Source: Escherichia phage Ge15
Strand: one strand, 5' to 3'
Sequence record: PP359696.1
DNA length: 64,000 nt
Of the stretch, positions 30,522-34,881 are shown one piece after another. Both the position numbers and the translations under genes were made by a program. Under the pieces are notes generated by a model. The model saw only the letters and a program-made list of their open reading frames with translations. It had not been told where the DNA came from and searched no databases. Each line of letters begins with the position of its first letter. Position 1 is the first letter of the stretch.

Positions 30522-31139
30522 TTATGCCTTACTAAATTTGCCTTTAGAATCTCTTTTCATGAGACGACCTTTAATAAATCCGTCGGGAATAATACCGTCT
30601 GGTTGTATTAATTTATTTATTGCGCCATTATTGACCCAAAAAGTTCCTGTGGTAGTCGGTTTGACTTTACATCCTTTTCTGGACTTTCTATTAGGATGAA
30701 CCATCCCTTTTACAAATCCTTCTGGAACAAGTTCTCCAGGTTTAATAAAAATATTTTTAGTTCCATTAGTGTAGCAAGTTTTACCTAATACCGTGCCTGG
30801 TGAGTTTTCAAATCTTTTAGCGGAAGATTCTTTCATCTTTGCTATAACCTCTGTAGTCATAACAATTCCACCAATTCCACCAGGTTTCATATTATAATAA
30901 TTTTTGCTTTTTATTAGTTCAGGAGTTATAATTTCTTCTTCATACATGTACGCTTCTTCGGAAGTTTTAAACTCTTTTAATATTGTTCTAGAGAAATTGT
31001 TTTCACCATATTTCTTTATAGCCTGCTGAATTGCCTTACCGGAACCAAGGTAACCATCATTCAAGTCATCAGTAGAGTGTTTTCCTATATACTTTTTACC
31101 ATTTATTAGATTTGTTGTTTCATATACAAAGTGGTACAT
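30522..31139 (-). CDS. GIY-YIG homing endonuclease (Seg family; segD-like position)
   Basis: 205 aa; N-terminal GIY-YIG module YHFVYETTNLINGKKYIGKH; basic C-terminal region. Confidence 0.8.
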   Translation of the reverse strand: MYHFVYETTNLINGKKYIGKHSTDDLNDGYLGSGKAIQQAIKKYGENNFSRTILKEFKTSEEAYMYEEEIITPELIKSKNYYNMKPGGIGGIVMTTEVIAKMKESSAKRFENSPGTVLGKTCYTNGTKNIFIKPGELVPEGFVKGMVHPNRKSRKGCKVKPTTTGTFWVNNGAINKLIQPDGIIPDGFIKGRLMKRDSKGKFSKA

Positions 31140-31167: not shown

Positions 31168-31175
31168 TATTTATA
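31168..31175 (-). promoter_or_regulatory. Late promoter (TATAAATA on minus strand) for the GIY-YIG gene
   Basis: Plus-strand TATTTATA about 29 nt upstream of the minus-strand start at 31139. Confidence 0.55.
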
Positions 31176-31188
31176 CTGAGGAAATATT

Positions 31189-31869
31189 ATGATAGATAAA
31201 GATTATATTGCAGAGCTGAAGGCTCTTGATGATAATAAAGAAGCTAAAGCTAAATTAGCTGAATATGCTGAACAGTTTGGTATAAAGGTCAAAAAGAATA
31301 AATCTTTTGATAATATCGTTAATGATATTGAAGAAGCCCTCCAGAAGCTCGCTAGTGAACCTATGCCAGAGACTGATGGGTTATCTATTAAAGACTTAAT
31401 TGATGCTGCTGATGCTGCAGACGGATTAAAATATGACGATGAAGAAGTCAATCCAGAAGCAGCACTTCTGATTGATTCTCCGGTTAAATCTGACATTAAA
31501 ATTGAAGTAGTAGAAACGGATAAAATTCCTGAAAATACCGATGTTTTGATTGAAGATACTCCTTTTGTTGAAGAAAAATTCGAGCAGGCTGTAGCTGAGA
31601 TTATTGAATCTGAAAAGCCGTCTGTATTTACTCTTCCGGAAAACTTTAGTCCGAATCTTCAGCTGATTGGAAAAAATCCAGGATTCTGCACTGTTCCTTG
31701 GTGGATTTACCAGTGGATTGCTGAAACTCCGGATTGGAAATCTCACCCAACTAGTTTTGAACACGCGTCGGCGCACCAAACTTTATTTAGCTTAATTTAC
31801 TACATTAATCGTGACGGATCAGTTCTAATTCGTGAAACACGTAATTCTTCTTTCGTAACATTAAAATAA
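31189..31869 (+). CDS. inh: Inhibitor of prohead protease
   Basis: 226 aa MIDKDYIAELKALDDNKEAKAKLAEYAEQFG...; position and length as T4 Inh. Confidence 0.88.
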   Translation: MIDKDYIAELKALDDNKEAKAKLAEYAEQFGIKVKKNKSFDNIVNDIEEALQKLASEPMPETDGLSIKDLIDAADAADGLKYDDEEVNPEAALLIDSPVKSDIKIEVVETDKIPENTDVLIEDTPFVEEKFEQAVAEIIESEKPSVFTLPENFSPNLQLIGKNPGFCTVPWWIYQWIAETPDWKSHPTSFEHASAHQTLFSLIYYINRDGSVLIRETRNSSFVTLK

Positions 31870-31878
31870 GGATAACTT

Positions 31879-33297
31879 ATGGCTTTTACAGTTGATATAA
31901 CTCCTAAAACACCGACAGGGGTTATTGATGAAACTAAGCAGTTTACTGCTACACCCAGTGGTGAAACTGGAGGCGGAACTATTACATATGCTTGGACTGT
32001 AGATAATGTTCCACAAGATGGAGCTGAAGCAACTTTTGATTATGTATTAAAAGGACCTGCTGGACAAAAGACTATTAAAGTAGTTGCAACAAATACACTT
32101 TCTGAAGGAGGCCCGGAAACGGCTGAAGCGACAACAACTATCACAGTTCAAAATAAGACACAAACGACTACCTTAGCTGTAACTCCTGCTAGTCCTGCGG
32201 CTGGAGTGATTGGAACAGCCGTTCAATTTACCGCTGCCTTAGATTCACAGCCGCCAGGTGCATCTGCTACGTATCAATGGCACGTTGACGGTTCTCCTGT
32301 AAGCGAAGCAACTGACGCTACATTCAATTACACTCCTGACACAAGCGGAGTTAAAACAATTAAGTGTGTAGCTCAAGTAACCGCGACAGATTATGATACA
32401 AAGGAAGTTACTTCCAATGAAGTGTCACTGACTGTTAATAAAAAGACGCAGACAACTACATTAGCCGTAACTCCTGATAGTCCTTCAGCTGGAGTAATTG
32501 GAACCCCAGTTCAATTTACTGCTGCCTTGGTTTCTCAACCTGTTGGAGCGTCTGCTACATATAAATGGTATGTAGATGATTCACAAGTTGGTGGAGAAAC
32601 TAACTCTACATTTAACTATACTCCAACTACAAGTGGAGTAAAAAGAATTAAATGCGTAGCGCAAGTAACGGCAGAAAATTACAATGAAAAGGAAGTTACT
32701 TCTAATGAAGTATCATTGACAGTTAATAAGAAGACAATGAATCCACAAGTTACATTGACTCCTCCTTCTATTAACGTTCAGCAAGATGCTTCGGCTACAT
32801 TTACGGCTAATGTCACTGATGCTCCAGAAGAAGCACAAATCGAATATTCATGGAAGAAAGATTCTTCTCCTGTAGAAGAATCAACTAATGTATACACCGT
32901 TGATACATCATCTATCGGAAGTCAAACTATTGAAGTTACTGCCACTGTTACTGTCACTGATTATGATAGCAAAACTATCACAGCAGAAGGTCAAGTTCAG
33001 GTAACTGATAAAGTTGCTCCAGAACCAGAAGGTGAATTGCCTTATGTTCATCCTCTTCCACATCGTACTTCAGCTTATATCTGGTGCGGTTGGTGGGTTA
33101 TGGATGAAATCCAAAAAATGACAGAAGAAGGTAAAGATTGGAAAACTGAAGATCCAGATAGTAAATACTACCTGCATCGTTACACCCTTCAGAAGATGAT
33201 GAAAGACTATCCAGAAGTTGATGTTCAAGAATCACGTAATGGATACATCATTCATAAAACTGCTTTAGAAACTGGTATCATCTATACCTATCCATAA
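31879..33297 (+). CDS. hoc: Hoc head outer capsid protein, 4 Ig-like domains + capsid-binding C-terminal domain
   Basis: 472 aa; tandem Ig-like repeats; C-terminal domain ...PYVHPLPHRTSAYIWCGWWVMDEIQKM...; about 96 aa longer than the ~376 aa I recall for T4 Hoc. Confidence 0.9.
   Translation: MAFTVDITPKTPTGVIDETKQFTATPSGETGGGTITYAWTVDNVPQDGAEATFDYVLKGPAGQKTIKVVATNTLSEGGPETAEATTTITVQNKTQTTTLAVTPASPAAGVIGTAVQFTAALDSQPPGASATYQWHVDGSPVSEATDATFNYTPDTSGVKTIKCVAQVTATDYDTKEVTSNEVSLTVNKKTQTTTLAVTPDSPSAGVIGTPVQFTAALVSQPVGASATYKWYVDDSQVGGETNSTFNYTPTTSGVKRIKCVAQVTAENYNEKEVTSNEVSLTVNKKTMNPQVTLTPPSINVQQDASATFTANVTDAPEEAQIEYSWKKDSSPVEESTNVYTVDTSSIGSQTIEVTATVTVTDYDSKTITAEGQVQVTDKVAPEPEGELPYVHPLPHRTSAYIWCGWWVMDEIQKMTEEGKDWKTEDPDSKYYLHRYTLQKMMKDYPEVDVQESRNGYIIHKTALETGIIYTYP
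32152..32724 (+). repeat. Tandem duplication of an Ig-like domain coding unit inside hoc (2 x ~285 bp)
   Basis: Units 32152-32436 and 32437-32724 are roughly 80 percent identical at protein level (NKTQTTTLAVTPASPAAGVIG... vs NKKTQTTTLAVTPDSPSAGVIG...). Confidence 0.85.
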
Positions 33298-33303
33298 TCA
33301 TAA

Positions 33304-33329
33304 GGGGCTTCGGCCCCTTTCTTCATTTT
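33304..33329 (+). terminator. Terminator after hoc
   Basis: ggggc-ttcg-gcccc hairpin followed by a T-rich tract. Confidence 0.65.
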
Positions 33330-33386: not shown

Positions 33387-33602
33387 ATGAGATTGATTAT
33401 GAGAACTGAGGTTGTGGTGTTTACTCTTCATGAGTCTGGAAAGTCATTCATTGAAATTGCTCGTGAATTAAACTTACAGGCGAAAGAAGTGGCTGTATTA
33501 TGGGCTCGAGCTATGACTGCTAAGAATAAATTTGAAACTCGAGAAAAAGTTGTCTATAGAAAAAGACATATCAATAAAAAGGTGAAAAATGGAACAGTAT
33601 GA
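33387..33602 (+). CDS. Hypothetical small basic protein
   Basis: 71-aa ORF; helix-turn-helix-like segment SFIEIARELNLQAKEV. Confidence 0.5.
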   Translation: MRLIMRTEVVVFTLHESGKSFIEIARELNLQAKEVAVLWARAMTAKNKFETREKVVYRKRHINKKVKNGTV

Positions 33603-33867
33603 TCTTTATGAAAATGAATCTTTTGCTAATCAATTACGTGAAAAAGCATTAAAAAGTAAACAGTTTAAGCTAGAGTGTTTTATTAAAGATTTTTCAGAAC
33701 TTGCTAATAAAGCAGCTGAACAAGGTAAAACATATTTTAGTTATTATTGCACTGCTCGCGATAAATTGATTACTGAAGAAATTGGTGATTGGCTGAGAAA
33801 AGAAGGATTCAGCTTTAAAGTCAATAGTGATCAGCGTGATGGTGATTGGTTAGAAATTACATTTTGA
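33589..33867 (+). CDS. Hypothetical protein
   Basis: 92-aa ORF upstream of rnlB. Confidence 0.55.
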   Translation: MEQYDLYENESFANQLREKALKSKQFKLECFIKDFSELANKAAEQGKTYFSYYCTARDKLITEEIGDWLRKEGFSFKVNSDQRDGDWLEITF

Positions 33868-33876
33868 GGATTAATT

Positions 33877-34881
33877 ATGTTTAAAAAGTATAGCAGTCTT
33901 GAAAATCATTACAACTCTAAATTTATTGAAAAACTTTATAGCTTAGGATTGACTGGCGGCGAATGGGTAGCTCGTGAAAAGATTCACGGCACAAACTTTT
34001 CTTTGATTATTGAGCGTGATAAAGTAACTTGCGCTAAACGTACTGGACCGATTCTTCCTGCTGAAGATTTCTTTGGGTATGAAATTATTCTAAAGAATTA
34101 CGCTGATTCCATTAAAGCAGTACAAGATATTATGGAAACTTCAGCTGTTGTGACTTATCAAGTTTTTGGCGAATTCGCTGGACCTGGCATTCAGAAGAAT
34201 GTTGATTATGGTGATAAAGATTTTTATGTATTTGACATTATTGTCACTACAGAAAGTGGCGATGTAACTTATGTTGATGATTACATGATGGAATCGTTTT
34301 GTAATTCATTTGGGTTTAAAATCGCTCCACTTTTGGGTCGTGGTAAATTTGAAGAACTTATTAAATTGCCAAATGATTTGGATTCTGTTGTTCCGTCTTA
34401 TAATTTTACCGTAGATAATGCAGGTTTAATTGACGCTAACAAATGTGTTTGGAAAGCTGAAGCCAAAGGCGAAGTATTTACCGCTGAAGGATATGTATTG
34501 AAACCTTGTTATCCTTCTTGGCTGCCTAATCGCAATCGTGTAGCCATCAAATGCAAGAATTCTAAATTTAGTGAAAAGAAAAAGTCTGATAAGCCTATTA
34601 AAGCTAAAGTTGAACTGTCAGAAGCTGATAACAAATTGGTGGGGATTTTAGCTTGTTACGTTACACTAAACCGAGTAAATAACGTTATTTCTAAAATTGG
34701 CGAAATTGGTCCAAAAGATTTTGGAAAGGTGATGGGACTAACTGTTCAAGATATTTTGGAAGAAACTTCTCGTGAAGGTATTACTCTAACTCAAGCGGAT
34801 AATCCTTCTTTGATTAAAAAGGAATTAGTTAAAATGGTACAAGATGTACTTCGTCCGGCTTGGATTGAATTGGTAAGTTAA
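33877..34881 (+). CDS. rnlB: RNA ligase 2
   Basis: 334 aa; nucleotidyltransferase motif I KIHGTN (Lys35); matches recalled T4 Rnl2. Confidence 0.93.

Follow-up and report, generated by a model that had tools for sequence, protein, structure and literature searches.

Is the long hoc gene of Escherichia phage Ge15 a recent novelty of this phage, or an established form of the gene? The question arises from a 64,000-nt stretch of its genome record, PP359696.1 (the window), in which hoc encodes a protein longer than T4 Hoc and contains two adjacent, similar Ig-like units. The analysis described below led us, with high confidence, to regard the gene as the ordinary long allele of the RB30 type, a common and already annotated 472-aa form with four Ig-like domains, in which the central units are old paralogues and copy number has most likely varied by recombination.

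Identification of hoc and its genomic context

The gene product was searched against the PDB using phmmer, and T4 Hoc (5vf3_Z) was the top match among solved structures, with E = 2.7e-230. An identical protein, named Hoc, is already deposited in NCBI for Escherichia phage Ge15 (WZE64528.1). The order of this T-even late-gene block in the window, segE-inh-hoc-24.2-rnlB, is T4-like (T4 annotation: segE-inh-hoc-24.3-24.2-rnlB), placing hoc in its conserved T-even position between inh (hoc.1) and 24.3/24.2/rnlB. Across 24 kb around hoc, the sequence is ~97% identical to many Tequatrovirus genomes, and inh is 94–99% identical in nucleotide sequence to its counterparts in T4 and FL12. The features of the locus are collected in Table 1.

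The hoc ATG lies 9 nt past the inh stop codon, with an AAGGA ribosome-binding site 8 nt upstream of the ATG, and inh and hoc are probably co-transcribed. No plus-strand late-promoter motif TATAAATA was found directly upstream of either gene, and promoter-like matches in the scan showed no excess, with 7 seen versus 8.8 expected from shuffled sequence. A terminator-like hairpin follows hoc, and phages G2540-3 and G8 have a terminator annotated at the corresponding position. The ORF list contained no antisense ORF of at least 80 aa inside hoc.

Table 1 Features of the hoc locus, in window coordinates.
Feature	Coordinates	Strand	Basis and remarks
segE	30522-31139	minus	ORF list
inh (hoc.1), prohead-protease inhibitor gene	31189..31869	+	ORF list; directly upstream of hoc
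hoc, highly immunogenic outer capsid protein	31879..33297	+	ORF list; 472 aa plus stop; 4-Ig RB30-type allele
Ig-like domain 1 (D1; aa 1-88, repeat phase)	31879..32142	+	AlphaFold all-beta, pLDDT 80-93; identity 35-39% with the repeat units and 96% (nt) with T4
Repeat unit 1, A-type Ig unit (aa 89-184)	32143..32430	+	Repeat finders; pLDDT 90-95
Repeat unit 2, B-type Ig unit (aa 185-280)	32431..32718	+	Repeat finders; pLDDT 88-96
D3 of T4 numbering, fourth Ig domain here (aa 281-376)	32719..33006	+	Pfam I-set and Ig_3 at aa 289-373; beta sandwich, pLDDT 88-93; identity 40-44% with the units
C-terminal capsid-binding domain (aa 377-472)	33007..33294	+	Near-identical to T4 Hoc residues 281-376 (phmmer)
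Intrinsic-terminator-like GC-rich hairpin AAGGGGCTTCGGCCCCTT, then T-rich tail	33302..33319	+	Pattern scan; 5 nt past the hoc stop
24.2	33589-33867		ORF list
rnlB	33877-34881		ORF list

Tandem repeat and domain architecture of the 472-aa Hoc

Analysis of the gene using Tandem Repeats Finder revealed a single array at 32143-32736 (period 288, 2.1 copies, 77% matches, score 708), and an ungapped repeat finder returned two abutting, in-frame 288-nt copies with 76% identity, listed as units 1 and 2 in Table 1. The units are identical at 219 of 288 nucleotides and 74 of 96 amino acids (76% for DNA, 77% for protein), and a global alignment of their protein sequences likewise gave 77%, with z = 32, well beyond chance. 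In global alignments within the Hoc protein, either unit was far more distant from D1 and from D3 (identities in Table 1), while D1 and D3 were 29% identical to each other.

The structure of Hoc was modelled with AlphaFold2 from an input alignment of 48 Hoc sequences. Four consecutive all-beta sandwich domains were obtained over aa 1-376, with pLDDT of about 80-96, and a Foldseek search of the model against the PDB gave four-Ig fragments of Sidekick-2, Dscam1 and ICAM-5 as the best matches. Pfam matches were to PKD and Ig_2 on both units, with PKD, Ig_2, BiPBP_C and I-set matches across the units and D3. For the C-terminal domain, confidence in the model was low (pLDDT 31-65) and this part of it was left unused; the assignment of the domain is therefore based on near-identity to the solved T4 Hoc. 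The domain is also conserved, with dN of 0-0.013 against ten orthologues. The protein thus combines a C-terminal region homologous to the capsid-binding domain with a linear N-terminal array of Ig-like domains resembling PKD or I-set, as in the T4 Hoc family, and has the length of 472 aa and the two 288-nt in-frame units between D1 and D3, A followed by B, that characterize the RB30-type allele.

Much of the sequence-only reading of this locus is borne out by these results. Its assignment of the gene to hoc agrees with the T4 Hoc match and the gene order, and the fourth Ig-like domain that it counted is recovered in the structure prediction. The interval in which it placed the duplication, 32152-32724 (aa 92-282), covers the 288-nt repeat and is in phase with the structural domains. 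It was right that the two units are closer to each other than to the first or last Ig-like domain (77% versus 35-44%) and that they are adjacent and similar; the identity of roughly 80% that it gave was slightly high.

Comparison with Hoc of T4 and other phages

T4 Hoc (NP_049793; PDB 5vf3, 8t1x and others) has 376 aa, encoded by a hoc gene of 1131 nt (NC_000866), and consists of three Ig-like domains and the capsid-binding domain. The phmmer alignment of the two proteins falls into two pieces, T4 residues 1-134 pairing with residues 1-134 of the query and T4 residues 105-376 with residues 201-472. The length difference is therefore exactly one 96-aa unit, confirming an earlier estimate of the excess over T4 made from the sequence. 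The two phages share the gene and its locus, including segE upstream of hoc; nucleotide identity is 95% in the C-terminal domain, nearly as high as in D1, and the capsid-binding protein domains are near-identical. T4 differs in having one central unit in place of two, and in D3, which is only 83% identical in nucleotide sequence.

The closest named counterparts are RB30 (AY101183, AAM52483.1) and RB27 (KM607000), in which Hoc likewise has 472 aa and the repeat has the same position, period (288 nt, in frame) and unit junction, SL|TVNKKTQTTT. Over the whole gene they are 93.2-93.4% identical in nucleotide sequence to the window hoc (RB30, 93.2% over the full length), and the RB30 and window proteins share one 90% cluster. 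The differences from RB30 are allelic only, unit 1 being 89% and unit 2 92% identical at the nucleotide level. The window has segE upstream, which RB30 is not known to carry.

A still longer form, a 568-aa Hoc with five Ig-like domains, is found in Escherichia phages UGKSEcP1, YUEEL01, slur03, ESh36 and others. It shares D1, D3, the C-terminal domain, the unit period and the junctions with the window protein, and its first unit is A-type, 88-89% identical in nucleotide sequence to window unit 1. It differs in having three central units, an A unit followed by a B-like and a C-like unit. The Hoc-like protein of Serratia phage Muldoon (10 Ig domains), PNJ-9 Hoc, which is without domain 3, and RB49 Hoc (PDB 3SHS) have the conserved capsid-binding domain and a linear Ig-like string of variable number in common with the window protein (PMC10385173, PMC11853027). 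These proteins are far more distant in sequence, whereas the variation described here is a copy-number polymorphism of one unit among close Tequatrovirus genomes.

Prevalence and prior annotation of the four-Ig form

To place the window allele among known hoc genes, the gene was compared by megablast with 50,697 phage records, and 680 records were matched. The best 40 of these 680 were all full-length matches of ~1419 nt with 92.8-96.6% identity, and included RB27, RB30, PST, SHFML-11 and PhiZZ30; single-piece 1419-nt matches to RB30, RB27, PST and others were 92.8-93.4% identical. Forms were counted from the footprints of the matches in the individual records; a BLAST count at ≥80% coverage merges the two pieces of a three-Ig gene and so does not separate the forms. 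When 60 rows were sampled at even intervals from the ranked list of 680 records, 18 had the 1419-nt single-piece footprint, and the 1131-nt form was seen in T4, RB5, RB51, JS09 and others. With the 576-nt repeat as the query, which matched 598 records, at least two contiguous units were present in 24 of 60 rows, ~19-20 of them being four-Ig forms. From these two evenly spaced 60-row samples, which yield estimates of prevalence and not full counts, the 1419-nt form is present in about 30-33% of the roughly 600-680 matching phage genomes. The 1704-nt form, encoding 568 aa and five Ig-like domains, was found in ~23 records.

The same length classes were seen at the protein level. The 90% cluster of the window protein has 167 members, and all 15 members listed have 472 aa; among the best 120 clusters at 90%, 77 have 376 aa, 29 have 472 aa and 9 have 567-570 aa. 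By number of central units, T2, T4, T6 and RB51 have one, this phage, RB27, RB30, PST, AR1, wV7, PP01 and HP3 have two, and UGKSEcP1, YUEEL01 and slur03 have three. The two-unit gene is carried by ~200 genomes, of phages of Escherichia, Shigella, Yersinia, Salmonella, Serratia and Hafnia.

The repeat had also been annotated before. In the RB30 hoc record (AY101183), five regions are annotated together with a repeat_region, whose note reads 'intragenic repeat led to appearance of additional immunoglobulin-like domain'. Our literature searches found no paper describing the RB30 repeat, and none treating the central-unit polymorphism systematically, within a scope that excluded much of the older phage literature.

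The rarity that the sequence-only reading had implied for the longer Hoc is contradicted by these counts: it had itself allowed that a four-Ig length common among T-even Hoc proteins would make the case ordinary, and the 472-aa form occurs in all seven of the other two-unit phages named above and in ~200 others. In the comparison with T-even and RB-series Hoc that it proposed, T2, T4 and T6 have a single unit, and RB27 and RB30 have the same 472 aa. The four-Ig Hoc is a common, previously annotated allele and therefore says nothing new about this phage.

Age and lineages of the repeat units

The divergence of the units was estimated by the Nei-Gojobori method, and gave pS of 0.58, dS of about 1.1, dN of 0.14 and dN/dS of about 0.12 for unit 1 against unit 2; 43 of the 69 differences over the 288 positions fall at third codon positions. 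The corresponding estimates for the two units are nearly unchanged in RB30, RB27 and FL12, and dS is 0.70-0.71 in HP3 and G2540-3. By comparison, dS between the window hoc and ten orthologues is 0.05-0.42 for D1, 0.16-0.57 for D3 and 0.07-0.27 for the C-terminal domain.

Units in the same position were found to be orthologous across alleles. In a matrix of 21 units, window unit 1 is 85-100% identical in nucleotide sequence to the first units of RB30, FL12, HP3, G2540-3, UGKSEcP1 and YUEEL01, versus 74-81% to all other units. At the protein level, in 30 two-unit alleles, first units have an identity of 0.88 to other first units and of 0.77 to second units. The identity between the two units of one protein ranges from 0.54 to 0.83 in these 30 alleles, with a mean of 0.76, so that the value of 0.77 for the window protein is typical. 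Because of the contrast in dS and this positional orthology, we place the split between the A (first) and B (second) lineages before the diversification of the sampled hoc alleles. A third lineage, C, comprises the third unit of the five-Ig alleles and the second unit of HP3.

To judge from their synonymous divergence, the central domains are old paralogues that had diverged to near-saturation at synonymous sites long before the sampled T-even hoc alleles separated. The dN/dS ratio indicates purifying selection on both units, which argues that both are used. The copies are thus not near-identical at synonymous sites, and the form is not confined to close relatives, as would be expected of a recent event. 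The proposal of an extra Ig-like domain acquired by recent tandem duplication accordingly survives in part: the extra domain and the tandem, paralogous units are present, and the word 'recent' has to be dropped, given a dS of about 1.1 between units versus 0.05-0.57 between orthologues.

Probable recombination among the units

The single central unit of the three-Ig alleles is closer in nucleotide sequence to window unit 2 than to unit 1 (88% versus 81% for T4, 93% versus 75% for RB51 and 85% versus 79% for KMB38). Unit 1 therefore represents the lineage that is mostly missing relative to T4, and on these identities window unit 2 is the closest counterpart of the domain 2 core of T4 and RB51.

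Several of the single units are mosaic. Compared with RB30 units 1 and 2, the T4 unit is A at nt 1-66 (all 11 informative sites), B at 75-231 and mostly A at 240-286, and the mosaic was supported by a max-chi-square permutation test (p = 0.0002). The KMB38 unit begins as A and becomes B at nt 150|155 (p < 0.0002), and the RB51 unit is almost purely B, being B after the first few sites. Painting was extended to 13 single-unit alleles, using 29 sites at which no base is common to the A and B panels; one was pure A (teqdroes), two were nearly pure B (RB51, AV120), and several were differing mosaics. Painting of 78 single-unit protein clusters gave 23 clusters with later-to-first and 16 with first-to-later switches, with all segment combinations represented and no directional bias. 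Mosaicism is also visible within the window gene itself, where a 400-nt tract (32158-32557) matches FL12 at every position and the sequence on either side, like the rest of the gene, is 90-95% identical. All domain boundaries carry a short homology, ACnGTTnAnAAnAAGAC, encoding TV-x-NK-T.

Since the single-unit alleles are A-type, B-type or A/B mosaics, we infer recombination as the mechanism of copy-number change. Most likely, unequal crossing-over and gene conversion, with the 288-nt units as the homologous sequences, would alter both copy number and composition, and the recombining partners could be units within one genome or units of co-infecting phages. One in-register crossover from 5' A to 3' B was considered as the sole mechanism. 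It fits RB51, AV120 and KMB38, which are only part of the set, and this single-crossover deletion model was rejected, as T4, G8, JS09, slur07, ELT1 and IME537 need extra switches and the painting is without directional bias.

Origin of the tandem pair

Had domain 2 been duplicated in tandem recently, and only in the lineage of this phage, the outcome would be an unusual longer Hoc with two adjacent, in-frame units that have the same length (288 nt) and resemble each other much more than they resemble D1 or D3, and the textbook reference, T4, indeed has one unit only. Such a duplication is nonetheless highly improbable in view of copies that differ at 24% of nucleotides with dS of about 1.1, of a two-unit gene with position-specific unit types in ~200 genomes from six host genera, and of the earlier annotation of the repeat in the RB30 record. 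Assembly errors are typical of tandem repeats, and a repeat expanded by the assembler, or arising from sequencing, would be a more trivial origin. A single copy cannot have been doubled by an assembler, however, because 69 of 288 positions differ; with the reading frame intact and the same structure recovered in many separate sequencing efforts, among them the RB30 gene record from the Sanger era, we consider an artefact to be practically out of the question.

A different history for the A-B tandem is out-of-register recombination between co-infecting phages carrying diverged single-unit alleles, one of type A and one of type B, in which case the units may have diverged before the arrangement formed, and recombination would have spread it afterwards. 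Alleles with one unit include teqdroes, whose core is pure A, as well as RB51 and AV120, whose cores are nearly pure B; the homology at the domain boundaries could support the crossover, hoc is visibly mosaic, as in the tract shared with FL12, and T4 recombination rates are high at high multiplicity of infection (PMC9271167). The pure A and pure B single units can equally be explained, however, as deletion products with crossovers near the unit end, and the first and second unit positions are kept across four-Ig and five-Ig alleles whose D1 and D3 differ with dS of 0.3-0.6, so that the A-B arrangement is in any case not young. We regard this history as somewhat unlikely. Whether the pair arose by in-place duplication followed by divergence and repeated loss, or by the joining of diverged alleles, it is old and widespread under both.

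Returning to the central units as old paralogues of variable copy number, the data are consistent with a broader picture of hoc as a cassette gene, to which we give an even chance of being correct. Two to three old unit lineages (A, B and C) would occur one to three times in tandem, always in the same order, with copy number and composition reshuffled between co-infecting phages by unequal crossing-over and gene conversion; the three-Ig Hoc of T4 would then be an A-B-A recombinant derivative and not the ancestral form, and fibre length and ligand valency would be rapidly adjustable. This systematic picture of A/B/C unit cassettes, with T4 domain 2 as a mosaic, is the only aspect of the locus that we consider mildly new.

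Functional implications of an additional central unit

In T4, 155 Hoc molecules are present per capsid, and the protein is dispensable for growth (PMC10385173, PMC9958956). The C-terminal domain binds the centre of the gp23 hexamer, one molecule at each, and the Ig-like domains form a fibre of ~180 Å; among Hoc homologues, 1 to 10 Ig-like domains are strung on the conserved capsid-binding domain (PMC10385173). Capsid attachment of the 472-aa Hoc would be expected to be unchanged. The Ig domains have been implicated in adherence to mucus and bacterial surfaces (PMC9958956, PMC9271167), and it is plausible that a longer Hoc fibre would alter display or adherence, as the sequence-only reading suggested. 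For work that uses T4 Hoc as a display scaffold or examines mucus adherence, it is relevant that the T4 protein represents just one length class out of at least three (376, 472 and 568 aa) that circulate in its near relatives.

A motif reported to bind MUC2 is also present in the duplicated unit. The reported site in PNJ-9 Hoc is NEVSLT (N180-T185), with which domain 2 ends (PMC11853027). NEVSLT is present twice in the window Hoc, at residues 180-185 and 276-281, in each case at the end of a unit. Relative to the T4 form, the long allele could plausibly extend the fibre by about one Ig domain and supply a second NEVSLT copy as a putative MUC2 site.

Signs of sequence exchange within hoc

The central units of hoc are 288-nt in-frame tandem repeats, each encoding an Ig-like domain, and the gene was compared with those of related phages. 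Over a 400-nt tract at window 32158-32557, which takes in the greater part of unit 1 and the first part of unit 2, hoc matches phage FL12 at 100% identity, and the parts of hoc flanking this tract are 90–95% identical. Such a pattern is the signature of a recent recombination exchange inside hoc. The single central unit of T4 hoc (gene nt 265-552) was compared with RB30, whose 472-aa Hoc carries two units. Unit nt 1-72 of T4 are identical to RB30 unit 1 (72/72), while nt 73-216 match RB30 unit 2 at 135 of 144 positions. Set against both RB30 units, Ig domain 2 of T4 is a mosaic of the form A-B-A, where A and B denote the first- and second-unit lineages.

A longer Hoc is also present in Tequatrovirus: UGKSEcP1, YUEEL01 and slur03, together with some 20 further phage records, have a 568-aa protein of five Ig-like domains. 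Its three central units are arranged in the order A, B-like and C-like, C being a third lineage of units. A more divergent 567-aa form (Hoc protein entry P0088, 24 members) is 53% identical and has different middle units.

segE upstream of inh-hoc

A GIY-YIG homing endonuclease gene and a T4 late-promoter motif are located near inh, the gene directly upstream of hoc.

Features upstream of inh-hoc in the window
Feature	Position	Strand	Remark
segE, GIY-YIG homing endonuclease gene, 205 aa	30522-31139	-	upstream of inh-hoc
T4 late-promoter motif TATAAATA	31168-31175	-	29 nt upstream of segE start

The segE region is 99–100% identical to that of T4 at the nucleotide level (204/205 aa for the protein), in contrast to only ~89% for hoc. 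FL12, the phage with the hoc closest to that of the window, lacks segE. The T4-type segE beside this non-T4 hoc allele looks recently acquired or homed.

Frameshifted hoc and database records

In the records of T2 (PV648364.1), T6 (MH550421.1) and IME537 (NC_054921.1), hoc is frameshifted and its CDS is annotated as split or missing. The site common to all three is a short A-run in the central unit (unit nt ~205-220), whose intact form in F1 and G8 is GTTAAAAAAATT. The run is A8 in IME537 and A6 in T2, which has further frameshifts besides; T6 carries one extra base. These frameshifts could mark a slippage hotspot inactivating a dispensable gene, or could be homopolymer sequencing errors in the records. 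Both window units are intact, with A4 and A5 runs.

Two of the database records matched by window 22000-46000 and by hoc seem to carry a wrong label. They are "Staphylococcus phage SAJK-IND" (MG010123.1, 32 kb), a 97% match to 24 kb of the T4-like window, and "Escherichia phage HP3" (KY608967.1, UNVERIFIED), which is filed under Rosemountvirus although Tequatrovirus-like in its hoc region.
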